DNA of 64,000 nt from Chiloscyllium plagiosum (lineage: Eukaryota). The first letter of the stretch is position 1, and every line of letters starts with the position of its first letter. The position numbers and the translations under genes are program-made. The stretch is taken from NCBI RefSeq assembly GCF_004010195.1, contig NC_057752.1, forward strand, positions 14,475,355 to 14,539,354, written 5' to 3'. Shown piece by piece: positions 1 to 54,149 of this stretch. The notes under the pieces were generated by a model. It was not told the DNA's origin, did not search any database, and was given only the letters and a program-made list of their open reading frames with translations.

Positions 1-3000
1 AAAGCTAATCCCTGAACAGTACCTCACTCAGAAAGCTGCTCCCTGTCCAGTACCTCACACAGAAAGCTGCTCCCTGTACAGTACCTCACTCAGAAAGCTG
101 CTCCCGGAACAGCACCTCACTCAGAAAGCTGCTCACTGTCCAATACCACACACAGAAAGCTGCTCCTTGCACAGTACCTCAATCAGAAAGCTGCTCCCTG
201 TCCAGTACCTCACACAGAAAGCTGCTCCCTGCACAGTACCTCACACAGAAAGCTGCTCCCTGTCGAGTATCTCACACAGAAAGCTGCTCCCTGTCCAATA
301 CCACACACAGAAAGCTGCTCCCTGTCCAGTACCTCACACAGAAAGCTGCTCCCTGTGCAGTACCTCACACAGAAAGCTGCTCCCTGTGCAGTACCTCACA
401 CAGAAACCTGCTCCCGGTACAGTAACTCACCCAGAAAGCTGCTCCCTGTCCAGTATCTCACACAGAAAGCTGCTCGCTGTCCTGTACCTCACACAAAAAG
501 CTGCTCCCTGTACTGTACCTCACACAGAAACCTGCTCCCGGTACAGTACCTCACACAGAAAGCTACTCCCTGCACAGTACCTCACTCAGAAAGCTGCTCC
601 CTGCACAGTACCTCACTCAGAAAGCTGCTCCCTGTACAGTATCTGACACAGAAAGCTACTCCCTGACCAGTACCTCACACAGAAAGCTGCTCCCTGTCCA
701 GTATCTCACACAGAATGCTGCTCCCTGTCCAGTATCTCACACAGAAAGCTGCTCCCGGTACAGTACCTCACTCAGAAAGCTGCTCCCGGTACAGCACCTC
801 ACTCAGAAAGCTGCTCACGGTACAGTACCTCACTCAGAAAGCCTCTCCCTGTCCAGTACCTCACTCAGAAAGCTGCTGCCTGTCCAGTATCTCACACAGA
901 AAGCTGCTCCCTGTGCAGGATCTCAGACAGAAACCTGATCCATGGACAGCACCTCATTCAGAAAGCTGCTCCCTGTCCAGTACCTCACACAGAAGGCTGC
1001 TCCCTGTACAGGACCTCACACAGAAAGCTGCTCCCTGTCCAGTACCACACACAGAAAGCTGCTCCCTGTCCAGTACCTCACACAGAAAGCTGCTCCCTGT
1101 CCAGTACCACACACAGAAAGCTGCTCCCTGTCCAGTACCACACACAGAAAGCTGCTCCCGGTACAGTACCTCACACAGAAAGCTGCTCCCTGTCCAGTAC
1201 CTCACTCAGAACGCTTCTCCCTGTCCAGTACCTCACACAGAAAGCTGCTCCCGGTACAGTACCTCACTCAGAAACCTGCTCCCGGTACAGTACCTCACAC
1301 AGAAAGCTACCCCCTGAACAGTACCTCAATCAGAAAGCTGCTCCCTGTCCAGTACCTCACACAGAAAGCTGCTCCCTGTCCAGTACCACACACAGAAAGC
1401 TGCTCCCTGTCCAGTACCACACACAGAAAGCTGCTCCCGGTACAGTACCTCACTCAGAAAGCTGCTCCCGGAACAGCACCTCACTCAGAAAGCTGCTCCC
1501 TGTCCAGTACCTCACACAGAAAGCTGCTCCCTATACAGTACCTCACACAGAAAGCTGCTCCCTGTACAGTATCTCACACAGAAACCTGATCCATGGACAG
1601 TACCTCACTCAGAAAGCCTCTCCCTGTCCAGTGCATCACACAGAAAGTTGCTCCCTGTCCTGTACCACACACAGAAACCTGCTCCCGGTAGAGTACCTCA
1701 CACAGAAAGCTAATCCCTGAACAGTACCTCAATCAGAAAGCTGCTCCCTGTCCAGTACCTCACACAGAAAGCTGCTCCCTGTCCAGTACCTCACATAGAA
1801 AGCTGCTCCCGGTACAGTACCTCACATAGAAAGCTGCTCCCGGTACAGTACCTCACTCAGAAAGCTGCTCCCGGAACAGCACCTCAGACAGAAAGCTGCT
1901 CCCTGTACAGTATCTCACACAGAAAGCTGCTCCCTGTCCAGTACCTCACTCAGAAAGCTGCTCCCGGTACAGTACCTCACTCAGAAAGCTGCTCCCGGTC
2001 CAGTACCTCACACAGAAAGCTGCTCCCTGTCTTGTCCCTCACACAGAAAGCGGCTCCCGGTCCAACATCTCACACAGAAAGCTGCTCCCGGTACAGTACC
2101 TCACACAGAAAGCTGCTCCCTGTCCAGTACCTCACTCAGAAAGCTGCTCCCTGTCCAGTACCTCACACAGAAAGTTGCTCCCTGTCCACTCCCTCACACA
2201 GAAATCGGCTCCCTGTCCAGTATCTCACACAGAAAGCTGCTCCCGGTCAAGTACCTCACACAGAAAGCTGCTCCCTGTCCAGTATCTCACTGAGAAAGCT
2301 GCTCCCGGTACAGTATCTCAAACAGAAAGCTGCTCAAGGTACAGTACCTCACTCAGAATGCGGCTGCCTGTGCAGTACTTCACACAGAAAGCTGCTCCCG
2401 GTACAGTATCTCACACAGAAAGCTGCCCGTTGACCAGTCCCTCACACAGAAAGCTGCTCCCTGTCCAGTATCTCACACAGAAAGCTGCTCCCGGTACAGG
2501 ACCTCACACAGAAAGCTGCTCGCTGTCCTGTGCCTCACACAGAAAGCTGCTCCCTGTCCAGTACCTCACTCAGAAAGCCTCTCTCTGTCCAGTACCTCAC
2601 TAAGAAAGCTGCTCCCTGTCCAGTACCTCACACAGAAAGCTGCTCCCGGTACAGTACATCACTCAGAAACCTGCTCCCTGTACAGTATCTCACACAGAAA
2701 GCTGCTTCCTGGACAGTACCTCACACAGAAAGCTGCTCCCTGTCCAGTCCCTCACACAGAAAGCGGCTCCCGGTCCAGTATCTCACACGGAAAGCTGCTC
2801 CCTGACCAGTACCACACACAGAAAGCTGCTCACGGTACAGAACTCACTCAGAAAGCCTCTCCCTGTCCAGTACCTCACTCAGAAAGCTGCTCCCTGTCCA
2901 GTACCTCACACAGAAAGCTGCTCCCTGTCCACTACCTCACACAGAAACCTGATCCATGGACAGTACCTCACACAGAAAGCCGCTCCCTGTCCAGTACATC

Positions 3001-6000
3001 ACACAGAAAGCTGCTCCCGGTACAGTACATCACTCAGAAACGTGCTCCCGGTACAGTACCTCACTCAGAAAGTTGCTCCCTGTCCAGTATCTCACACAGA
3101 ATAGCTGCTCCCTGTCCAGTACCTCACACAGAAAGCTTCTCCCTGTCCAGTATCTCACACAGAATAGCTGCTCCCTGTCCAGTACCTCACACAGAAAGCT
3201 GTTCCCTGTACAGTACCTCACACAGAAAGCTGCTCCCTGTCCAGTACCTCACATAGAAAGCTGATCCTGGTACAGTACCTCACTCAGAAAGCTGCTCCCT
3301 TTCCAGTACCACACACAGAAAGCTGCTCAAGGTACAGTACCTCACTCAGAAAGCCTCTCTCTGTCCAGTACCTCACTAAGAAAGCTGCTCCTTGTCCAGT
3401 ACCTCACTCCGAAAGCTGCTTCCTGGACAGTACCTCACACAGAAAGCTGCACCCTGTCCAGTCCCTCACACAGAAAGCGGCTCCCGGTCCACTATCTCAC
3501 ACAGAAAGCTGCTCCCTGATCAGTACCTCACACAGAAAGCTGCTCACGGTCCAGTACCTCACTCAGAAAGCCGCTCCCTGTCCAGTACCTCACACAGAAA
3601 GCTGCTCCCTGTGCAGTATCTCACACAGAAACCTTATCCATGGACAGTACCTCACACAGAAAGTCGCTCCCTGTCCAGTACCACACACAGAAAGTCGCTC
3701 CCTGTCCAGTATCTCACACAGAAAGCGGCTCCCTGTCCAGTATCTCACACGGAAAGCTGCTCCCGGTACAGTACATCACTCAGAAACCTGCTCCCGGGAC
3801 AGTACCTCACTCAGAAAGTTGCTCCCTGTCCAGTATCTCACACAGAAAGCTGCTCCCTGTCCAGTACCTCACACAGAGAGCTGCTCCCTGTCCAGTACCA
3901 CACACAGAAAGCTGCTCCCGGTACAGTACCTCACACAGAAAGCTGCTCCCGGTACAGCACCTCACACAGAAAGCTGCTCGCTGTCCAGTACCTCACTCGA
4001 ACATCCGCTCCATGTGCAGTACGTCACTCAGAAAGCTGCTCCCGGTACAGTACCTCACTCACAATGCCGCTCCATGTCCAGTACCTCACTCAGAAAGCTG
4101 CTCCCTGTACAGTGTCTCACACAGAAAGCCGTGCCCTGTCCATACCTCACACAGAAAGCGGCTACCTGTACAGTACCACACACAGAAAGCTGCTTCCTGT
4201 CCAGTACCTCACTCAGAAAGCTGCTCCCTGTCCAGTACCACACACAGAAAGCTGCTCATGGTACAGCACCTCACTCAGAAAGCCTCTCTCTGTCCAGTAC
4301 CTCACTAAGAAAGCTGCTCCCTGTCCAGTACCTCACACAGAAAGCTGCTCCCTGTCCAGTACCTCACGCAGAAAGCTGCTCCCTGTACAGTACATCACTC
4401 TGAAACCTGCTCCCTGTACAGTATCTCACACAGAAACCTGCTTCCTGGACAGTACCTCACACAGAAAGCTGCGCCCTGTCCAGTCCCTCACACAGAAAGC
4501 TGCTCCCTGTCCAGTATCTCACTCAGAAAGCTGCTCCCGGTACTGTCCAGTCCCTCACACAGAAAGCGGCTCCCGGTCCAGTATCTCGCACAGAAAGCTG
4601 CTCCCGGTACAGTACCTCACACAGAAATCTGCTCCCTGTCCAGTCCCTCACACAGAAAGCTGCTCCCGGTACAGTACCTCACACAGAAAGCTGCTCCCTG
4701 TCCAGTATCTCACTCAGAAAGCTGCTCCCGGTACAGTATCTCACACAGAAAGCTGCTCCCGGTACAGTACCTCACTCAGAAAACGGATGCCTGTACAATA
4801 CTTCACACAGAAAGCTGCTCTCTGTCCAGTACCTCACACAGAAAGCTGCTCCCTGTCCAGTCCCTCACACAGAAAGCGGCTCCCGGTACAGTACCTCACT
4901 CAGAAAGCTACTTCCTGTCCAGTCCCTCACATAGAAAGCGGCTCCCGGTCCAGTATCTCACACAGAAAGCTGCTCCCTGTCCAGCACCTCACACAGAAAG
5001 CTGCTCCCTGTACAGTAAGTACCTCACTCAGAAAGCGGCTGCCTGTACAGTACTTCACACAGAAAGCTGCTCCCTGTCCAGTATCTCACTCAGAAAGCTG
5101 CTCCCGGTACAGTATCTCACACAGAAAGCTGCTCCCGGTACAGCACCTCACTCAGAAAGCTGCTCCCTGTCCAGTACCTCACACAGAAAGCTGCTCCCTG
5201 TCCAGTATCTCACTCAGAAAGCTGCTCCCGGTCCTGTACCTCACTCAGAAAGTTGCTCCCTGTCCAGTACCTCACACAGAAAGCTGCTCCCGGTCCAGTA
5301 CCTCACTCAGAAAGCTGCTCCCTGTCCAGTTCCTCACACAGAAAGTTGCTCCCTGTCCAGTCCCTCACACAGAAAGCGGCTCCCTGTCCAGTATCTCACA
5401 CAGAAAGCTGCTCCCGGTAAAGTACCTCACACAGAAAGCTGCTCCCTGTCCAGTATCTCACTCAGAAAGCTGCTCCCGGTACAGTATCTCACTCAGAAAG
5501 CTGCTCCCTGTCCAGTACTTCACACAGAAAGCTGCTCCCTGTCCAGTACCTCACACAGAAAGCTGCTCCCTGTCCAGTTCCTCACTCAGAATGCTGCTCC
5601 CCGTACAGTACCTCACTCAGAAAGCTGCCCCGGGACAGGATCTCACACAGAAAGCTGCTCCCAGTACAGTACTTCACTCAGAAAGCAGCTGCCTGTACTG
5701 TACTTCACACAGAAAGCTGCTCCCTGTCCAGAACCACATTCAGAAAGCTGCTCCCTGTCCAGTACCTCACACAGAAAGCTGCTCCCTGTACAGTAAGTAC
5801 CTCACTCAGAAAGCTACTCCCTGTCCAGGATCTCACTTAGAAAGCTGCTCCCGGTACAGTATCTCACACAGAAAGCCGCTCCCGGTACAGTATATCACAC
5901 AGAAAGCTGTTCCCGGTATAGCACCTCACACAGAAAGCTGCTCCCTGTCTCGTATCTCACACAGAAAGCTGCTCCCTGTCCAGTACCTCACTCAGAAAGC

Positions 6001-7173
6001 TGCTCCCGGGACAGTACCTCACACAGAAAGCTGCTCCCTGTCCAATATCTCACTGAGAAAGCTGCTCCCGGTGCAGCACCTCACTCAGAAAGCTGCTCCC
6101 TGTCCAGTACCTCACACAGAAAGTTGCTCCGTGGACAGTATCTCACTCAGAAAGCTGCTCCCGTACAGTACCTCACTCAGAAAGCTGCTCCATATCCAGT
6201 ATCTCACACAGAAAGCTGCTCCCGGAAAAGTACCTCACACAGAAAGCTGCTCCCGGTACAGTATCTCACACAGAAAGCTGCTCCCGGTACAATATCTCAC
6301 ACAGAAAGCTGCTCTAGGTACAGTACCTCACTCAGAAAGCGGCTGCCTGTACAGTACTTCACACAGAAAGCTGCTCCCTGTCCAGTATCTCACACAGAAA
6401 GCTGCTCCCGGTACAGTATCGCACACAGAAAGCTGCTCACTGTCCAGTCCCTCAAACAAAAAGCGGCTCCCGGTCCAGTATCTGACACAGAAAGCTGCTC
6501 CCGGTACAGTACCTCACACAGAAAGCTGCTCCCGGTACAGTACCTCACTCAGAAAGCTGCTCCCTGTCCAGTACCTCACACAGAAAGCTGCTCCCGGTGC
6601 AGTACCTCACACAGAAAGCTACTCCCTGTCCAGTACCTCACTCAGAAAGCTGCTCCCGGTGCAGTACCTCACTCACAATGCTGCTCCATGTCCAGTACCT
6701 CACTCAGAATGCTGCTCCCTGTACAGTGTCTCACACAGAAAGCCGTGCCCTGTCCATACCTCACACAGAAAGCGACTACCTGTACAGTACCTCACACAGA
6801 AAGCTGCTCCCGGTACAGTACCTCACTCAGAAAGCCGCTCCATGTCCAGTACCTCACTCAGAAAGCTGCTCCCTGTACAGTGTCTCACACAGAAAGCCGT
6901 GCCCTGTCCAGTACCTCACACAGAAAGCGGCTACCTGTACAGTACCTCACACAGAAAGCTGCTCCCTGTCCAGTACCTTACACAGAAAGCTGCTCCCTGT
7001 CCAGTACCACACACAGAAAGCTGCTTCCTGTCCAGTACCTCACTCAGAAAGCTGCTCCCTGTCCAGTACCACACACAGAAAGCTGCTCATGGTACAGCAC
7101 CTCACTCAGAAAGCCTCTCTCTGTCCAGTACCTCACTAAGAAAGCTGCTCCCTGTCCAGTACCTCACACAGAA
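1..7173. repeat. 31-bp tandem satellite, consensus CAGTACCTCACACAGAAAGCTGCTCCCTGTC (about 230 copies, open at window start and at gap)
   Basis: Unit read directly throughout. Three units (93 bp) translate to the 31-aa cycle QYLTQKAAPCPVPHTESCSLSSTSHRKLLPV seen in all + strand ORFs here. Confidence 0.97.
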
Positions 7174-13238: not shown

Positions 13239-13361
13239 CTTAAATCCTGCAATAGCCCCAGACTGAAGGTCAGATTCAATGTTTCCTGGATCCAGGTATG
13301 CAATACTCATCAGAAAGCCAGGCCCTGTGAAGGCCCAGAGCTTCCGAAAGCTTAATCGAGT
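13239..13361 (-). CDS. SLC11A2: NRAMP2/DMT1 metal transporter, internal exon (TM1 with DPGN motif)
   Basis: [41 protein letters not shown]. Acceptor tctttcttttccccgacag, donor AAG|gtacgt; 123 bp, phase 0-0. Confidence 0.96.
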
Positions 13362-17068: not shown

Positions 17069-17193
17069 CGAGCTGCTATTAGGAACAGGGATTTTCTCCT
17101 CCTGATGAGTATCAAATGGCATCTCTGCAGTCATGAACGTCCCTGTCAAGCTGATTTGGGTGCAACTGGTGTCGATCATTTTGGGAGGCTGTT
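17069..17193 (-). CDS. SLC11A2: SLC11A2 N-terminal cytoplasmic exon
   Basis: (E)QPPKMIDTSCTQISLTGTFMTAEMPFDTHQEEKIPVPNSSS; EKIPVP matches the NRAMP EKIxIP motif. Acceptor ctgtttccag, donor TCG|gtgagt; phase 1-0, joins in frame to 13361. Confidence 0.88.
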
Positions 17194-17689: not shown

Positions 17690-18830
17690 TGATTCACACA
17701 CACACACAGACATGCACATGTAAAAACATGTGCACACACAAAGGCATGTACTCAAACACAGACAGACCCACACAAATACATATACACACACACTCAGATA
17801 TACTCTCCTTCTCCCACATGCATACAGACTCAGACACTCTCTCTCGCTTCCACACCCACACACTTAAGCACACTCTCTCACACATGCTCAGACTCTCTTG
17901 CACACACACACACACACACAAATACATGCAGACACATTCACATGTTCAAGATTCATAAAGACATGTGCACACACAAAGGCACGTACTCAAACACTTACAG
18001 ACCCACACAAATACATATACACACACACACACTCATCAGATATACTCTCTCTCTCCCACATACATGCACCTAGATACACACTCTCTCTCACATGCTCAGA
18101 CTCTTTTGCGTATACTCTCAATGTCTTACACGCACAGATGCAGACACATTCATATGTTCAAAGTTCACACACAGACATGTACACATAAAGACGTGCACAA
18201 AGGCATGTACTTAAAAACAGACAGACCCATACAAATTCGTACACACTGTATATATACACACACTCTCTCTCTCTCTCTCTCTCTTCCCCACACGCACACA
18301 CTTAAGACTCTCTCTCCCACATGCTCAGACTCTCTTGCACACACACACACACACACAAATACATGCAGACACATTCACATGTTCAAGATTCATAAAGACA
18401 TGTGCACACACAAAGGCACGTACTCAAACACTTACAGACCCACACAAATACATATACACACACACACACTCATCAGATATACTCTCTCTCACCCACATAC
18501 ATGCACCTAGATACACACTCTCTCTCACATGCTCAGACTCTTTTGCGTACACTCTCAATGTCTTACACGCACAGATGCAGACACATTCATATGTTCAAAG
18601 TTCACACACAGACATGTACACATAAAGACGTGCACAAAGGCATGTACTTAAAAACAGACAGACCCATACAAATTCGTACACACTGTATATACACACACAC
18701 TCTCTCTCTCTCTCTCTCTCTTCCCCACACGCACACACTTAAGACTCTCTCTCCCACATGCTCAGACTCTCTTGCACACACTCTCAATGTCCTACACACA
18801 CAAACACATTCAGACACATTCGCATGTTCA
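17690..18830. repeat. CA/CT-rich low-complexity region with 437-bp tandem duplication
   Basis: Near-identical ORF pairs offset by 437 bp (17898/18335, 17965/18402). Confidence 0.9.
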
Positions 18831-19899: not shown

Positions 19900-20370
19900 A
19901 TCATAGAGTCATAGAGATATCCAGCACGGAAACAGACCCTTCGGTCCAACCCATCCATGCCAGATATCCTAAATAAACCTAGTCCCATTTGTCAGCATTT
20001 AGCCCGTATCCCTCTAAACCCTTCCTAGTCATATACCCATCCAGATGCCTTTTAAACGCTGTAATTGTACCAGTCTCCACCACTTCCTCTGGCAGCATAT
20101 CCAGCACGGAAACAGACCCTTCGGTCCAACCCATCCATGCCAGATATCCTAAATAAACCTAGTCCCATTTGTCAGCATTTAGCCCGTATCCCTCTAAATC
20201 CTTCCTAGTCATATACCCATCCAGATGCCTTTTAAACGCTGTAATTGTACCAGCCTCCACCACTTCCTCTGGCAGCTGATTCCATACACGTAACACCCTC
20301 TTTTATATCTTAGGTCTCTTTTATATCTTTCCCCTCTCACCCTAAACCTATGCCCTCTAGTTCTGAACGC
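19900..20370 (-). mobile_element. CR1 3' end with internal 180-bp tandem duplication
   Basis: ATCCAGCACGGAAACAGACCC at 19919 and 20099; CR1 tail sequence. Confidence 0.88.
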
Positions 20371-21834: not shown

Positions 21835-22330
21835 AATTTTTATGATGCACCCACGGAAAGCAGCCCATCTGGATGAATCATGGCTTGGTACAGCAACTGC
21901 TCTGCCCAGGACGGTAACAAACTACAGAGAGTTGTGAACACAGCCCAGTCCCTCACATGACCTAACCTTCCATCCATTGACTCCGTCTACACTTCCCACT
22001 GCCTCAGGAAGGCAGCCAACATCATCAAAGACCCCTCCCACCCTGGATACACTCTCTTCCACTCTCTTTCATTGGGCAGAAGATACAAAAGGTTTGAAAA
22101 CACGTACCAACAGATTTAAGAACAGCTTCTTCCATACTGTTATCAGAATAATGAATGGATCTCTCGTATACTCGCGTTGATCTTTCTCTGCACCTTCTCT
22201 GTAACACTATATTCTGCATTCTGTTCTATTACCCTGATGTACTAATGGTAGGTAGGATTTGTCTGGATAGCACACACACAATACTTTTCACTGTATCTCA
22301 GTACATGTGACGACAACAAAGCAAGTCAAA
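21835..22330 (+). mobile_element. Rex1/Babar-type LINE 3' fragment
   Basis: Degenerate AWYSNCSAQDGNKLQRVVNTAQS...TRTNRFKNSFFHTVIR. Confidence 0.7.
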
Positions 22331-22440
22331 TTAAACCACCACTTTGGCGAAGTGAAAATTGGCCCCATAGCTGGACGGAGAGGGCCCTCTGGAGAAATGC
22401 CTCTTCCCAGCTGGAGAACGGGAGGCAGACGGTAGCTTAC

Positions 22441-22506
22441 CAGTTGACTCTTTCATCTCTTGATCGAAGCTCATTGTATTACAATCTTGCTGATGCTCCG
22501 AGCTCT
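22441..22506 (-). CDS. SLC11A2: SLC11A2 start-codon exon (equivalent of mammalian exon 2); ATG at 22474
   Basis: Strong acceptor ttttcttttcatttaatttcag and donor CTG|gtaagc. Reads (E)SSEHQQDCNT-MSFDQEMKEST-G; 34 coding nt after ATG, phase 1, in frame with 17193. Confidence 0.82.
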
Positions 22507-22629
22507 CTGAAATTAAATGAAAAGAAAAAAACAGGAAGGCATAAATGATCGTGGGACTGAGTTTGCCTTGGGGTTTCTCCTGACCCCTTTGGATAACTTC
22601 AATGGAAAAGCAGCAGAATTGGTCAAGAG

Positions 22630-22960
22630 TTATATGTATCTGTGTGTGTCTGCTGTTGTTTGTATATCTGTATGCATGTGTGTGTTTCTGTCTGTACATA
22701 TGTGTGTGTTTGTATTTTGTACGTCTATCTGTGTATATATCATGTGTATCTTGTGTGCGTCCGCCTGTGTGCGTGTCTGCGTGCCCGTATGTGTGTGCCT
22801 CATGTGCTTAAGTGTGTGTGTCTTGTGTACTTAGGTGCGCACACGCACACACAGGCTCGTGTGTCTTGTGTGCTTGTGAATGTGTACCTGTGTGTGTCTG
22901 TCTTGTGTGCTTGTGATAGGGTATCTGTGTGTGTGTCTCTGTGTTTGTGTGCGTATGTTA
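22630..22960. repeat. TG-rich low-complexity tract
   Basis: Degenerate (TG)n. Confidence 0.9.
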
Positions 22961-23379
22961 CTGTCGAGGAATGCACTAAGTATTACCCACTATGGCCCTG
23001 TCACACAGTACTCCGACAAGGGAATAGCTTTGCACCTCGAAGGAGTGAGAACCATCACCGAGTCACCCTCAGTCTCATGCAACAAAACCCCATCTTGTAT
23101 AAGAGTCAGATGGTGACCTTGTAACCATTATTTACCATCATCCAAACCCATCTGGTTCAAGAGGAAGCAAATCTGACCACCCTTCCATTTAAAAACAGAA
23201 CGCACTGGAGAAACTCAGCAGGTCTGGCAACACCTTCAAAGAAGAATCATGCCAGACTCAGAACATTAATTCTGTTTCTCTCTCCACAGATGCTGCCAGA
23301 CCCACTGAGCTTTTCCAGCATTCTCTGTTCACATTTCCGACTTCCGGTATCTGCAATACTTGGGTTTCAAATCTGCGAT

Positions 23380-25360
23380 CCGACATGCAGATCTGGCCTA
23401 CATGTGACACCAGACCCACAGCAAACGTGGTTGACTCTTAACTGCCCTTTGAAATGGCCGAGCAAATCACTCAGTTGTATCAGTCCACAAAAAAGACTCA
23501 ATGAAAATGGACCAACTGCTCAGCATCACCTTAAGTAATTGAAACGACAACAGTGAACATAGCCCTGCCGACCCTACAAAGTCGTCCTCACTAACATCTG
23601 GGAGCTAGGACCAATATTGAGAGAGTTATCCCAGACTAGTCAAGCAACAGCCTGACATTGTCTATAATGTATGATTCTGTAAGTATGACTATGTCCCAGA
23701 CACCACCATCACCATCCCTGGATACATCCTGTCCCACCGGCAAGACAGACCCAGCTGAGGTGGGGATACAGTCGGGAGGGAGTGATCCTAGGAGTCATCA
23801 GCACTGACTCCGGGCCCCATGAAGTCTCAAGGCTTCAGGTTAAACCTGGGCAAGGAACCCTCCTGCTGATTCCCACGTACTGTCCTCCCTCGGCTGATGA
23901 ATCGGTACCTCTCCGTGTTGAACAACACTTAGAGGAAGCACTGAGGGTGGCAAGGTCACAGAATGTACCCTGGGTGGGGGGTTTCAATGTTCACCACCAA
24001 GAGTGGCTCAGCAGCAGTATTACNNNNNNNNNNNNNNNNNNNNNNNNNNNNNNNNNNNNNNNNNNNNNNNNNNNNNNNNNNNNNNNNNNNNNNNNNNNNN
24101 NNNNNNNNNNNNNNNNNNNNNNNNNNNNNNNNNNNNNNNNNNNNNNNNNNNNNNNNNNNNNNNNNNNNNNNNNNNNNNNNNNNNNNNNNNNNNNNNNNNN
24201 NNNNNNNNNNNNNNNNNNNNNNNNNNNNNNNNNNNNNNNNNNNNNNNNNNNNNNNNNNNNNNNNNNNNNNNNNNNNNNNNNNNNNNNNNNNNNNNNNNNN
24301 NNNNNNNNNNNNNNNNNNNNNNNNNNNNNNNNNNNNNNNNNNNNNNNNNNNNNNNNNNNNNNNNNNNNNNNNNNNNNNNNNNNNNNNNNNNNNNNNNNNN
24401 NNNNNNNNNNNNNNNNNNNNNNNNNNNNNNNNNNNNNNNNNNNNNNNNNNNNNNNNNNNNNNNNNNNNNNNNNNNNNNNNNNNNNNNNNNNNNNNNNNNN
24501 NNNNNNNNNNNNNNNNNNNNNNNNNNNNNNNNNNNNNNNNNNNNNNNNNNNNNNNNNNNNNNNNNNNNNNNNNNNNNNNNNNNNNNNNNNNNNNNNNNNN
24601 NNNNNNNNNNNNNNNNNNNNNNNNNNNNNNNNNNNNNNNNNNNNNNNNNNNNNNNNNNNNNNNNNNNNNNNNNNNNNNNNNNNNNNNNNNNNNNNNNNNN
24701 NNNNNNNNNNNNNNNNNNNNNNNNNNNNNNNNNNNNNNNNNNNNNNNNNNNNNNNNNNNNNNNNNNNNNNNNNNNNNNNNNNNNNNNNNNNNNNNNNNNN
24801 NNNNNNNNNNNNNNNNNNNNNNNNNNNNNNNNNNNNNNNNNNNNNNNNNNNNNNNNNNNNNNNNNNNNNNNNNNNNNNNNNNNNNNNNNNNNNNNNNNNN
24901 NNNNNNNNNNNNNNNNNNCTGTAACCTCATGGCCCGGCATATCCCCCACTCAACCATTACCATCAAGCCAGGGGATCAACCCTGGTTCAATGGAGAGTGC
25001 AGGAGGGCATGGCAGGAGCAGCACTAGGCATTCCTGAAGATGAGATGTTAACCTGGTGAAGCCACCAAACAGGATTACTTGCACGCCAAACAGCAAAAGC
25101 AGCAAGTGACAGACAGAGCTAAGTGATCCCACAATCACTGGATCAGATCTAAGCTCTGCAGTGCTGCCACATCCAGTCGTGAATGGTGGTGGGGGGATTA
25201 AACAACTCACTGGAGGAGGAGCCCCCACAAATATCCCCAACCTCAATGATGGAGGAGCCCAGCACATCAGGGCAAAAGGTCAGGCTGAAGCTTTCACAGC
25301 AATCTTCAGCCAAAAGTGCTGAGTGGATGATCCACCTCGGCCTCCTCCAGTGATTCCCAA
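23380..25360 (+). mobile_element. Second LINE family, ORF2 endonuclease region (degenerate, spans gap)
   Basis: PDTTITIPGYILSHRQDRP, YCPPSADES, WVGGFNVHHQEWL, KPGDQPWFNGECRRA. Confidence 0.85.
24024..24918. other. Assembly gap
   Basis: Run of N. Confidence 0.99.
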
Positions 25361-25850
25361 ATTCTGGGCTTGAAAATTGCAGCAGAGGGATACAATTGAA
25401 AAGGAGCAGGTTGTTTTTCTCCGAACAGAGGGAGCTGAGGGGTTACTTAATCGATGTTATAGAGTGAGCAGGGAAAATCTGTTTTCCCCTAGCAGAGAGG
25501 TCAATTAGCAGGGGGCACAGATTTAAGGTGCTGGGGGTGGGGGGGATGAAGGAGTCCAGAGTCAAATCAAGACAGAAACCAGAACCAAATACTTAACAAG
25601 TAAACTCAGTCTTTGAACACAAACTCCTGAGAATGTCAGTTTGGTCCTCTGAGAGCAACTTGGAACACAGAGTCAGAGAGAAAGCAGATAACAAGGAATC
25701 AAAGTGAGAGACAGAGCTGATAAACACCTCGGCAAGGAGTAAAAAGTGACCGAGTGAAAAGAACCCAGAGGACAGAGAGGATAGGAAAAGCCGAGCTCAG
25801 GGATCGGTGATGGAGGTGCTCAACTTCTTAAAAATAACAATGCTTTGTAC

Positions 25851-25884
25851 CTGTTGGCTCGCTCTTCTCCTTCTTGAATGACAT
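25851..25884 (-). CDS. SLC11A2: Candidate upstream coding exon of SLC11A2 (1A-like), MSFKKEKSEPT
   Basis: ttaaccATG TCA TTC AAG AAG GAG AAG AGC GAG CCA ACA G|gtacaa; phase 1, in frame with both 22506 and 17193; resembles the 22441-22474 segment. Confidence 0.6.
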
Positions 25885-26274
25885 GGTTAAAGCAGTCTGT
25901 CGCAACCTGGAGCGCTCGGTAACAGCTCGTTCCCTGGAATGGACGTGAGCAAACATTCAGTGGGATGTGAGAGAGCAGTGGGGAGGAGGTGGGGGGTAGC
26001 GGTGAATCAGCAAACCTCTTAGGTGTCAAAGTGAGTTTCATCCGTAGAGTAGCTGAGGCACAGGAAAAACTGCCAGACTATTTGGTCAGAGAACAGCCTG
26101 AGTTTTTATTTTTGGTGGGAGGGTACGATTGTGGGCAGGACAGGGACTGAGTGCAACTTGAAGGTTCCAGGCAAACCTTTCAGCTGGGCTTTCTGTTTAA
26201 CCTTGACACCTTAATCGCCCGTGGCAAAACAACAAGAGGAATAAATCATTGGGAAATGTAGCAAACATGTCAGG

Positions 26275-47335: not shown

Positions 47336-47589
47336 AATCAGTTACTGAGCTGTTTCAATAAAGACAATGGAACTCTAAAATGGGCAGTTCAAAATCCACT
47401 CTGCAAAACTGCAGTTGGACTCAAACTGTTAACTCCATTCTTCTCTCCACAGATGCTGCTAAACCATCTGAGTTACTCCAGCACTTGTTTTATTGTTTCT
47501 TTTTCCAAATAGCAGTGAGTCGAAAATTGTCTAGAAGTATTACACACAAAACAAAGTTCTGTTTCACAGAATTGCGGTGTAGGAGGAAA

Positions 47590-48890
47590 AGCACAGCCGG
47601 TCAGGCAGCATCCAGGGAGAATCAACGTTTCGGGCACAAGCCCTTCATCAGGAATGAGGCTTGTGGGCCAAGGGGGCTGAGGGATAAATGGGAGGCGACT
47701 GGGGCTGGTAGGGCTCAAGGTAGCTGGGAATTAGATTTAGATGACTTACGGTGTGGAAACAGGCCCTTCGGCCCAACAAGTCCACACCGACCCGTCGAAG
47801 AGCAACCCACCCAGACCCATTCCCCTACATTTACCCCTTCACCTAACACAACGGGCAATTTACCATGACCAATTCACCTAACCTGCATATCTTTGGACTG
47901 TGGGAGGAAACCGGAGCACCCGGAGGAAACCCATGCAGACACGGGGGGAATGTGCAAATTCCACACAGAGAGTCGCCTGAGGTGGGAATTGAACCCAGGT
48001 CTCTGGCACTGTAAGGCACCAGTGCTAACCACTGTGCCACCGTTGATGAAGGTGGGGGAGAAGGTGATAGGTTGGAGAGGAGGGTGGAGTGGATAGATGG
48101 GAAAGGGGATGGACAGGTCAGGAGGGCAGTATCGAGTTGGAGGCTTGGGACTGGGATAAGGTCAGGTGGTAAGGGTTTGGCAATTGGACGCCTTACATCG
48201 ACGCCTGGAGGGAAGACGCCTCATCTCCCTCCTTGGGACCCTCCAACCACGCGGGATCGATGTGGATTTCACTAGTTTCCTCATTTCCCCTCCCCCCACC
48301 TTATCCAGTCCCAAGCCTCCAACTCGACACCGCCTTCTTGAACTGTCTTACCTGTTCATCTTCCTTCCCATCTATCCACTCCACCCTCCTCTCCAACCTA
48401 TCACCTTCTCCCCCACCTTCATCAATGGTGGCACAGTGGTTAGCACTGGTGCCTTACAGTGCCAGAGACCTGGGTTCAATTCCCACCTCAGGCGACTCTC
48501 TGTGTGGAATTTGCACATTCCCCCCGTGTCTGCATGGGTTTCCTCCGGGTGCTCCGGTTTCCTCCCACAGTCCAAAGATATGCAGGTTAGGTGAATTGGT
48601 CATGGTAAATTGCCCGTTGTGTTAGGTGAAGGGGTAAATGTAGGGGAATGGGTCTGGGTGGGTTGCTCTTCGACGGGTCGGTGTGGACTTGTTGGGCCGA
48701 AGGGCCTGTTTCCACACCGTAAGTCATCTAAATCTAATTCCCAGCTACCTTGAACCCTACCAGCCCCAGTCGCCTCCCATTTATCCCTCAGCCCCCTTGG
48801 CCCACAAGCCTCATTCCTGATGAAGGGCTTATGCCCGAAACGCCGACTCTCCTGTTCCTCGGATGCTGCCTGACCTGCTGTGCTTTTCCA
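47590..48890. repeat. Long inverted repeat of Penelope-like tails, each containing the same SINE
   Basis: Arms about 47626-48103 and 48365-48845; identical ORFs on opposite strands (47893 + and 48575 -). Confidence 0.93.
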
Positions 48891-48939
48891 GCGCCACTCT
48901 CTCGACTCTGATATCCAGCAGTCCTCACTTTCTCCCATG

Positions 48940-49950
48940 GTGTAGAAGGAGGCCATTCAGCCCATAGCACTTGAACCAGCTCATTAAATAAGCATCGTGA
49001 CCTCGTGCCAATTTCCTGTCTTTTCCCTGTGTACTTGCATGTTGTTTTTATCCAAATAACCATCCATTACCCTTTTAAATGCCTCAATTGAAACTTCCTC
49101 CACCACATTTCCAGGCAGAGCATTCCAGATCCTGACTACTTGCTGAGTTGAAGAGTTTTCCTCCCACATCACCCTTGTTTCTCTTGCAAATCACTTTGAA
49201 TCTCTGTCGTCTTGTTCTTCTTCCTTTCATGGGGGGGAACAGATCTCCTTCTCAGTCTTCCTCCCTCCAGGGAGAACAGTCCCAACCTCTTCAATCTATC
49301 CTCATCGCTGAAGTCTCTCTTTCCTGCAACCATTCTTTTAAATCTCTTCGCTCCAGTGTGTTCACATCCTTCCGAAAGTGAGGTGCCCAGAACTGTGCAC
49401 GATACCCCAGCTGAGGTCGAACAGGTGTCTTGTAGAAGGTCAACATCACCTCCCTGCTCTTGTACTTTGTGCCCCTATGAATAAAGCTGAGGGCACTGTG
49501 TGTTTTATTCACTGCTCTCGCGCCCCTTGTCCTGCCACCTTCAATGATCTGGACACATCTACTCCCAGCTCCCTCTGTTTCTGCACCTCCTTTAGAATTG
49601 TGCCCCCTATTTGATACTGTCTTTCGATGTTCTTCCCGACAAAGTGCATCATCCCACACTCTAACTGCCACTGTCAGCCCACTCCAATAACTTGTCAACG
49701 TCCTTCTGGAGTTTCAGCTTGCCTCCTCACAATTCTTCAAAGTTTAGTGTCATCTGCAAACTTTGGAATTGTCCCTGCTCGCCAAGATCCAGATCATTAA
49801 TATATATCAGGGAAAGCAAAGGTCCCTGGGAAACTCCACCATATATCTTCCTGCAGCCTGAAAAATATCCATTAACATTCCTCTCTGTTTCTTACCACTC
49901 AGCCAGTTTTGTATCCACGATGCTGCTATCTCTTTTATTTCATGTCCTGT
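48940..49950 (-). mobile_element. CR1 fragment, old
   Basis: FYKTPVRPQLGYRAQFWAPHFRKD; VVRIWNALPG. Confidence 0.85.
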
Positions 49951-52385: not shown

Positions 52386-52968
52386 AATCTGGCTTCAATC
52401 CAAACTCACGGATTTGAACATCAAACCACAACTAAAGAGCTTCTCAAGCAATGCATTTTCGACCCTAACCACTCACTGCATCACAACGATTTTCCCTCAT
52501 GTCCCTACTGCTTCTTCGACTCAATGGGTTTAAGTCCATGCCCTTTCTTCTGGATCCCTTAATGAATGGGAACCACTTTAATGAATGGGAACGGTTTCTC
52601 CCAACTAGTTCTCAAACCGGTCTTTGTAACGTGAAGTTTCTCAACCCTTGAACCTTTCCCTTCTGAGCATTCGCGCTTTTCGGGAAGTGTGGAGCTCAGA
52701 ATACTCCAGCTGAAACTGAATTCGTGTCCAAGACAAGTTGTATACTCAGGTGGACTATGAAGTACTGAGTTTAAAAAAATGTGTCACCTTTCAATACGAA
52801 TAAAAATGTACTTTTCTTTTTGCGGTTCCAGACACTTTTACACCTCTTGGCCAAAGGCAGATTTAAAATGCTCGGGACTGCTCCTCTACTGAAAGAGTTC
52901 GGTTCCTCCTCACAAAATATCATCTAAGATCAGAAGCGGATGTAAAGTATGACGGCTTTTTCTAAGAT

Positions 52969-52979
52969 CTCACTTCCTC
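52969..52979 (-). promoter_or_regulatory. ETS/PU.1-type site in putative BIN2 proximal promoter
   Basis: CTCACTTCCTC (GAGGAAGTGAG on minus), about 100 bp upstream of the ATG; mammalian BIN2 is leukocyte-enriched. Confidence 0.45.
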
Positions 52980-53079
52980 ATAGGCAGAGAAGCTGAGAGT
53001 TGTCGGTGAGGCTGGGGGTGTCGACTTGACACAGAGTAGGAACAAGCGACGGGCAATTGTGAAGGAACGCAAAGGTGCA

Positions 53080-53163
53080 ATGGCTGAGACTCCAAGTAAA
53101 CCTGGAGGGGCCGGAATGTTTGCCAAGCACGTGCAGAAAAGGTTCATGAGGGCACAAGAAATG
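53080..53163 (+). CDS. BIN2: Bridging integrator 2, first coding exon (N-BAR amphipathic helix 0)
   Basis: gcaATGG start; MAETPSKPGGAGMFAKHVQKRFMRAQEM then donor gtaacg, phase 0. Resembles human BIN2 [27 protein letters not shown] as recalled. Confidence 0.88.
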
Positions 53164-53334
53164 GTAACGAATCCTTTTCCTCCATATTGCTCTGTTTAAA
53201 GCTTTTGCGTTTTCTCTTTCCCTCCCTTCCATTTTATGAGGGGGCGAAAGAAACGATTTGAGCCTTTCGACGGTGTGTGCATCTTTACCTTAGCTGTCTC
53301 TTTTTTCCCGGGCAAAAGTCAGGACTGCTCCCAG

Positions 53335-53392
53335 CCTCATTCCTGATGAAGGGCTTTTGCCTGAAACGTCGATTTTCCTGCTCCTCGGATGC
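53335..53392 (+). mobile_element. Penelope-like terminal fragment with hammerhead motif
   Basis: CATTCCTGATGAAGGGCTTTTGCCTGAAACGTCGATT. Confidence 0.75.
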
Positions 53393-54149
53393 TCCCCCCC
53401 CCCCCCCGCCTTCCGTTTCTTTGGAAGGTTTTGCTGCCACACTCAGTTCAAAGGGCACTTGGAGTAACATGACCTCTTGGTTGCATCGATCAGAACGATA
53501 TTTGCAGAATACGCATTGGCAAAGGACATATCCTGGTGTAAAAGTCTATTTAAAAGATCACTTGTCTTTCATAAATGAAATAAACTGACTAGTTTTGCGC
53601 TGAGGAGCTGACGGGATGGTTGGTGTACAGTGTGGTCACAGAGCTGTCAAAGCGGATGTTTAGATGTGAAACTTTTACTGGCAGCTTCAAGTTGAGAAAG
53701 AGGAATTTTTTTTCTGTCAAAAAGAATTGAAGCTCAGTTCTGAGAGAGACGTTGGTACAATTTGCTGACTAAGCTCTCCATCATTCGCATTCAACGAAAT
53801 GAAAAACAAAACGTTGCTTTCTGCCCGGGCCTCTTGTTAAGGAAGGACGAGGTTGAGCCAGGGGAGGCTAACAGGAGCAATCCTTTGCACATTGTGGTCG
53901 CAGCAGTGCCACAGGATGTCGGTTGCCGGGGCTGCATTGCTTCGGAGCTGGTAGCTGGGACCTCGCACCACAGAGCTGTTCAGCGAGCTGCCTGCAGGAT
54001 CGTCAACCACCATGGGACATCCTGAGACTCCCTATGCCTGGTCCCTGGCCCCTGCATTCAGCTGGCCCTACATAAGCACGCTCAGGTTGAGATGAGTACT
54101 GGGGGCCCTTATTGTGTACAGAGATGATGTCGATTAAAATGTGGAGGGG

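Follow-up and report, generated by a model that had tools for sequence, protein, structure and literature searches.

In mammals, coding exon 1A of SLC11A2, the gene of the metal transporter DMT1, splices to exon 2 and thereby extends the N-terminus by 29-31 residues up to a second Met (cited passage of PMC4458610), and a Leu16 signal in this extension directs human DMT1A-I to the plasma membrane (cited passage of PMC3224662). The sea bass gene slc11a2-beta has two first exons, 1A and 1B, with 34 coding bases each, which are mutually exclusive and used from alternative promoters (Neves et al. 2011, PMC3103463, a paper with 0 mentions of sharks). Tandem exon duplication as such is common, the usual outcome discussed being a mutually exclusive choice between the copies (cited passage of PMC9013439). 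Here we analyse a pair of look-alike exons, each carrying a start codon, in an slc11a2-like gene of the shark Chiloscyllium plagiosum. The gene lies on the minus strand of a stretch of 64,000 nt of contig NC_057752.1 (the window), to which all coordinates refer. A sequence-only reading had taken the gene for SLC11A2 and the pair for a duplicated start exon that creates a 1A-like isoform. We propose, with a probability of roughly three in four, that serial splicing joins the two exons and that they likely are tandem copies of an ordinary exon 2. The duplication would have taken place in the shark ancestor, within a second, diverged slc11a2 gene, termed the paralog in the following.

The exon pair and its splicing

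The upstream exon, exon 2a (25851..25933, minus strand, 83 nt), is an ordinary ATG-bearing exon 2, as judged from its sequence and its homology to the standard shark exon 2. Its ATG at 25884 has an A at -3 and is followed after 34 nt by a phase-1 GT donor at 25850, the encoded peptide being MSFKKEKSEPT. The acceptor (25934/25933, ttccag/G, phase 2) lies 49 nt 5' of this ATG and was assigned from its pyrimidine tract and the gene models of Heterodontus and Scyliorhinus torazame. The downstream exon, exon 2b (22506-22441, minus strand, 66 nt), probably a duplicate of exon 2, also has an A at -3 of its ATG (22474), again 34 nt to a phase-1 GT donor (peptide MSFDQEMKEST), phase 1 at both ends and an open frame 5' of the ATG. 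Between the copies lies an intron of 3,344 nt (22507..25850, GT..AG) that contains an 895-nt assembly gap. From ATG to donor 22/34 nt and 6/11 aa are identical, and our recount of these identities, of the A at -3, the 34-nt spacing and the phase-1 donors agrees with the sequence-only reading, as does the symmetric, open 66-nt exon. The additional in-frame ATG at 25956 that had been pointed out is real, but it has a T at -3, and the acceptor had been overlooked: the ATG lies 23 nt 5' of the acceptor, within its pyrimidine tract (25934..25956, minus strand). The frame is open there, and a transcript starting upstream would gain 24 residues; the RefSeq model of the species does not include this start, nor does the RNA contig described below reach it.

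The likeness of the two exons extends in register across all 66 nt (36/66 identical). Of the 127,870 window positions on both strands, a single one besides the exon itself reaches this score, and 3 of 200,000 shuffles did so when the ATG and the last G were held fixed (p about 1.5e-5). A whole-exon match unique in the window thus backs the exon duplication that had been postulated from the letters alone. Taken by themselves, the 5' 32 nt (14/32) are not significant, 2,398 window positions scoring as high, and the flanks of the pair are near chance (23/60 and 15/60 identical). Among the 89 open candidates in the window with an ATG, 34 nt and a GT, only the exon pair combines an A at -3 with a GT(A/G)(A/C) donor on the minus strand; a third copy was not found in the window, where the next-best candidates reach 19/34 and have poor donors.

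Data were used from 4 of 24 listed runs (X1, X2, X4 and X16), mapped onto 22300-26270; none of the listed sources of the stretch is recorded as RNA. In run X1 a single contig of RNA type joins 25851 to 22506 with the intron ends GT..AG (CT..AC on the forward strand) at a depth of 64.9, and the bin depths of this run fit one contig made up of the whole 66-nt exon 2b and 61 nt of exon 2a (25851-25911). The 25850 donor and the junction 25851-22506 are hence in use, as the sequence-only reading had anticipated. The RefSeq model XP_043537682.1 starts at 25884 and joins both exons as well, i.e. the exon pair is already part of the automatic annotation. It had further been claimed that three in-frame N-termini are possible, from both exons, from the upstream or from the downstream exon only. 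All three chains, as well as the one starting at ATG 25956, are stop-free and in frame with exon 4, and the both-exon form occurs in run X1, whereas the upstream-only and downstream-only forms are seen in gene models of other species only. That the likeness arose by chance, or that the upstream segment is not an exon, might be argued from the short, purine-rich sequences and from phase 1, which is forced for any exon joining exon 3; however, the spliced X1 contig, the whole-exon match and the cross-species models rule this out, and we give it practically no credit.

The exon pair across sharks and rays

Ten sharks have protein models whose N-terminus is usable, and in 9 of them exons 2a and 2b are found in series (Chiloscyllium plagiosum, C. 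punctatum, Stegostoma, Heptranchias, Heterodontus, Mustelus, two Scyliorhinus and Cetorhinus); the sharks belong to five orders. The paralog models of Hemiscyllium, Carcharodon and Amblyraja start in exon 4 and were left out of the exon counts. In the shark models exon 2b encodes 21, 22 or 23 residues, i.e. its length changes by whole codons, as expected of a translated exon, and all nine copies contain a Met, seven at the aligned codon and two at the adjacent one. The usage of the exons varies between models. Heterodontus model X3 skips exon 2b, and upstream exons are spliced into the site equivalent to 25933 in Heterodontus models X1 and X2 (two different exons) and in Scyliorhinus torazame. 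In four other sharks the counterpart of the ATG at 25956 is the modelled start, and in a Heptranchias model exon 2b is joined directly to an exon derived from a long interspersed nuclear element (LINE). In the Heptranchias models P0126 and P0127 the first exon is LINE reverse-transcriptase-like and continues in frame to exon 2b. When the upstream-exon peptides of 12 models were used to search for a first exon in the window, none was found, the strong matches being LINE only (Heptranchias X1 peptide).

Rays differ from this pattern. Their paralog models with a usable N-terminus have a single exon at this place (8 of 8), which in the seven compared resembles exon 2a at its start (34% vs 5% to exon 2b) and exon 2b at its end (65% vs 51% to exon 2a), a mixture indicative of what the exon might have looked like before duplication. 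The conservation expected by the sequence-only reading therefore holds for both exons in sharks, but not in the ray models. The standard slc11a2 models of sharks and rays also contain one such exon, and the 11 residues preceding the Met in the standard shark exon 2 are 46% identical to exon 2a and 22% to exon 2b. By these comparisons the upstream exon likely is the match of the normal slc11a2 exon 2 and the downstream exon an extra copy, and as the ray models show one exon the duplication likely is shark-specific. The standard genes show peculiarities of their own at this end. Skate-like standard slc11a2 proteins (P0021, P0024-P0026, P0035, P0036) begin 15 residues upstream, at a Met within exon 2, which is another route to an N-terminal extension, and the standard gene of Heptranchias (P0034, P0138, P0141) has an extra DKTS at the start of exon 3, like the DKPS/DKPP of the paralog, which suggests that standard gene and paralog may differ in the acceptor at which they enter a common ancestral exon 3.

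The sequence-only reading had also considered that the two-start layout might be ancestral. In that case it would go back to the ancestor of jawed vertebrates, with mammalian 1A plus exon 2 and sea bass 1A plus 1B as its orthologous counterparts. The 34 coding bases in each of the two sea bass exons and the splicing of mammalian coding exon 1A to exon 2, both taken from the passages cited above, would fit such an origin. However, a single such exon is present in the standard slc11a2 models of sharks and rays and in the ray paralog models, the two shark copies are similar to one another and to exon 2 and are unlike the tetrapod 1A peptide, and the sea bass exons are described in the cited passage as mutually exclusive. 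We thus consider common ancestry of these layouts very unlikely and dropped it in favour of a duplication within the shark lineage.

Based on these findings we suggest the following course of events. A genomic segment carrying exon 2 would have been duplicated in the shark stem. The upstream copy would have retained its acceptor and the main start codon, so that the main product would start at 25884 and its cytosolic N-terminus would be extended by 22 acidic, serine-rich residues. Since 83 mod 3 = 2, a second complete 83-nt exon in the same transcript would change the reading frame. The downstream copy would have taken an acceptor located 17 nt further inside the ancestral exon, where it has CAG and the upstream copy has CCG (one base), and would in this way have become a frame-neutral cassette of 66 nt, while retaining the EKKEST-type end next to exon 3. 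Skipping of exon 2b would restore the ancestral length, and the second ATG (22474) would come into play only in transcripts entering at 22506. As to the role of the extension, we tend towards a minor tuning of trafficking by analogy with the human 1A extension, whose Leu16 signal is absent from the shark sequence; the odds between this and no effect at all are about even.

Several points weigh against this proposal. The RNA backing of the joint is one contig from one of the four runs (X16 gave 0 mapped reads), and in runs X2 and X4 the 25851-22506 joint was not seen, which is not evidence of absence. The exon borders in the other species were derived from predicted proteins and not from DNA, i.e. 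a ray copy without an ATG would be invisible, and the model of the sawshark Pristiophorus contains the upstream copy only. The peptide comparisons between species involve 3 to 11 residues and related species and are for this reason indicative only. Moreover, the X1 contig extends to 25911 and does not reach the acceptor at 25933, which would be compatible with a start inside exon 2a.

This last point leads to the alternative that the upstream copy is a true alternative first exon with a promoter just upstream (starts at about 25911-26000), other transcripts entering at 22506 and starting at 22474, i.e. a convergent 1A/1B arrangement, which would come near to the sequence-only reading. In addition to the end of the contig, this would agree with the four shark models that begin at the 25956-equivalent ATG, with the retention of a Met by all nine exon 2b copies (in two of them beside the aligned codon), with the direct entry of a Heptranchias model at exon 2b and with the two promoters and 34-nt exons described in the sea bass passage. 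On the other hand, a full acceptor is present at 25933 and the equivalent site is used in the models of two genera, assembled contigs reveal neither transcript starts nor levels, and the Heptranchias entry exon is LINE-derived. Furthermore, by the established scanning rule an A at -3, as present at the first ATG, should keep leaky scanning low. Altogether, separate promoters seem unlikely to us, and we prefer serial splicing of two exon 2 copies.

The host gene and the TM6 tyrosine of its orthologs

By tree and sequence, the gene carrying the exon pair is not the standard SLC11A2 that the sequence-only reading had assumed, but probably a diverged second slc11a2 copy common to sharks and rays. 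Exon 3 (17069..17193, minus strand, 125 nt) encodes a paralog-specific N-terminal sequence with an in-frame ATG at 17179, the equivalent Met being the start of one Stegostoma model, and matches one protein at 100%, the NRAMP2-like XP_043537682.1 of Chiloscyllium plagiosum. Exon 4 (13239..13361, minus strand, 123 nt) encodes transmembrane helix 1 (TM1) with the DPGN metal-binding motif; exons after exon 4 were not found in the window. A homology search with the C. punctatum ortholog returned two slc11a2-like genes in sharks and rays. The contigs of the two genes are equal in size in 19 of 19 species with both listed, and in Cetorhinus and Carcharodon their accession numbers are consecutive. The standard gene is absent from the window, and equal contig sizes do not amount to adjacency of the two genes, which has to be added to the points on the negative side.

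A tree of 49 proteins unites the diverged copies in one clade (100/100, stem 0.24). This clade is placed together with the standard cartilaginous-fish copies and one further protein (97/99), apart from three proteins that we take to be SLC11A1-like; this label, and that of the outgroup, were assigned to the tree proteins from their N-termini. The standard copies are not resolved as a single clade (59/93). The model of Chiloscyllium plagiosum lacks the TM6 region and was left out of the tree and of the TM6 count. The core of the paralog is 81-85% identical to standard elasmobranch slc11a2, and over 78 species pairs the mean core identity is 88.9% for the diverged and 92.6% for the standard copy. 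The Nramp domain (PF01566) is recognised with E 3e-104 in the C. punctatum ortholog and with E 3e-37 in the incomplete Chiloscyllium plagiosum model.

The host gene might instead be a relocated SLC11A1 (NRAMP1) ortholog that was later homogenised with its neighbour. An approximately unbiased (AU) test did not reject the grouping of the diverged copies with the SLC11A1-like proteins (p 0.176, with only three such proteins), which speaks against our assignment to slc11a2, and no separate cartilaginous-fish SLC11A1 was among the 120 best matches. However, compared with solved structures the paralog scores 876 bits with human DMT1 and 739 bits with NRAMP1, its core is 77-80% identical to human DMT1 and 67% to two SLC11A1-like proteins, and the unconstrained tree places it with the standard copies as stated. 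Moreover, it shares the exon-2 peptide with slc11a2, its C-terminal tail aligns with the DMT1 tail and it lies on the same contig as slc11a2. We therefore regard an SLC11A1 origin as highly improbable and retain the assignment to a second slc11a2 copy.

The literature yielded nothing on a second elasmobranch slc11a2 gene beyond an entry in a list of X-linked genes, most subscription journals not being covered; in the cited passage of bioRxiv 10.1101/2025.02.26.637739 nramp2-like is X-linked in 13 elasmobranch species, the passage not stating which of the two genes is meant. In XP_043537682.1 about 135 residues including TM2-TM6 are absent after residue 116, and an unrelated stretch that was not found in the window stands in their place. 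As the C. punctatum model is complete, the missing part likely reflects an assembly gap.

Compared with the modest extension at its N-terminus, the paralog appears to have changed more deeply elsewhere. No LSLL/LYLL-type (second) tail was seen among the paralog models viewed, which would leave only the tail of the type with an iron-responsive element (+IRE), as far as models tell, and the Tyr before EKIP is absent and was presumably lost. The most conspicuous change concerns TM6. When 53 proteins were aligned, the paralog was found to be changed in 18 columns that hardly vary among the standard copies and other vertebrates. One of them is His301 of the 590-residue human isoform, i.e. H272 in the short numbering. 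Shark and ray paralogs with an intact TM6 have a Tyr there in 19 of 19 species, whereas all 32 of 32 sequences of the standard copies and of other vertebrates have a His. The same holds in wider samples: among 170 closer proteins (P0001-P0170) the site is His in 137 and Tyr in 30, all of them paralog isoforms, with 3 unmatched, and among 150 distant representatives it is His in 116, Asn, Gln, Ala or Gly in 5 and Tyr in 1, with 23 unmatched and 5 spurious, the single Tyr belonging to a fragment 93% identical to the paralog. Since the site lies beyond the window and the Chiloscyllium plagiosum model lacks it, the Tyr is demonstrated for close relatives of this species only. DPGN, Met294 and His296 are retained, the latter two in 19 of 19 species with an intact TM6; the numbering of His296 agrees with the cited passage of PMC11742427. 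Other fixed changes of the paralog are at human positions 79, 133, 146, 151, 161, 239, 283, 306, 418, 422, 446, 460, 470 and 475. Some of the fixed changes are near the TM2 partner of H272 and may represent compensation.

The same TM6b position has been mutated in DMT1 (H272) and in the Nramp of Deinococcus (H237). According to the cited passages of bioRxiv 10.1101/792127, every change tested at H237 abolished transport and locked the protein in an inactive state, DMT1 H272R is inactive, and H272A has no pH stimulation, uncouples protons and favours zinc; a passage of PMC5533754 calls the role of H272 in proton coupling unsettled. Those are laboratory substitutions and name no Tyr in the passages cited, whereas the Tyr of the paralog is natural. 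By analogy, the Tyr is predicted to alter the coupling of proton and metal uptake. Going further, we speculate, tentatively and with clearly less than even confidence, that the paralog, with a Tyr fixed in place of a histidine required for proton coupling and for closing the gate, may be a pH-independent, uncoupled surface transporter with a shifted metal preference, or a non-transporting partner of the standard copy. In sharks the exon duplication would then supply an N-terminal module that can be skipped and a second start, both sorting the protein to different membranes. If this were true, the paralog would be a natural, long-tested answer to the question of H272 function. With a Tyr in 19 of 19 species and a mean core conservation of 89%, it offers a ready test of the role of H272 and of compensating changes in its neighbourhood, and the His-to-Tyr change is worth a transport assay, as the laboratory changes reported in these passages kill or uncouple transport. 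Taken together, the exon duplication is an ordinary event and the host paralog is the better lead.

No CpG-rich stretch (observed/expected 0.5 or more) is present at exon 2a. A core at 25946-25941 that resembles a hypoxia-response element (HRE) was discarded, being a common 5-mer whose codons differ in the peptides of other sharks. A long C-rich tandem array at 1-7173, 3' of exon 4, is likely intronic, and its translations repeat every 31 residues, suggesting a 31-nt unit. Near-perfect tandem duplications (98% identical) at 17837-18781 (437 nt x2.2) and 19917-20276 (180 nt x2) are either recent or assembly artefacts, and identical translations near 47362-48956 suggest a similar repeat. On the plus strand, 53080-53163 is the first coding exon of a BIN/amphiphysin-family gene oriented away from the slc11a2 copy, which resembles BIN1 (E 0.04) and BIN2 (E 0.16) weakly and lies inside the most CpG-rich stretch (52401-54000). 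In humans, BIN2 is located near SLC11A2.

Comparison with known systems

One gene to compare with the paralog is the standard elasmobranch slc11a2 (e.g. XP_043537712-5), with which it shares the contig, a homologous exon 2, DPGN, Met294, His296 and the acidic motif of TM3. The standard gene, in contrast, has one exon 2, retains His301, has models with alternative tails and has changed more slowly.

Human DMT1 isoform 1A and the shark gene have in common that translation from an upstream ATG runs in frame across the 5' portion of the following exon up to a second Met and so lengthens the N-terminus, and this element of the sequence-only reading stands. The extension comprises 22 residues in the shark and 29-31 in human. 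However, the shark upstream exon has an acceptor of its own and is itself an exon 2 copy, it matches the standard exon 2 as detailed above, and it lacks the CEL/Leu16 motif of tetrapod 1A-type proteins. Because it is a copy of exon 2, the shark exon does not belong to the tetrapod-type exons 1A: judged from sequence, the extension has a 1A-like geometry and a different origin, and its designation as 1A-type had to be given up. As regards a possible promoter of its own, as in a first exon, the acceptor of exon 2a is present and is used in the models of other species, but the X1 contig stops within the exon.

Sea bass slc11a2-beta is alike in that an slc11a2 paralog has two exons with 34 coding bases from ATG to donor. 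It is unlike the shark gene in that the shark exons are spliced in series, the sea bass exons being compared by their description only. The shark pair also resembles tandem exon duplications as described in the cited passage of PMC9013439, i.e. neighbouring homologous exons that arise from local duplication. In contrast to tandem duplicated exons that are mutually exclusive, both shark copies are present in one transcript (run X1 and the models of nine species), and it is the shifted acceptor that makes their serial inclusion possible. Thus, in addition to the alternative DMT1 N-termini known in mammals and sea bass, the shark paralog may be regarded as a third, independent route, distinguished by its frame-saving step.

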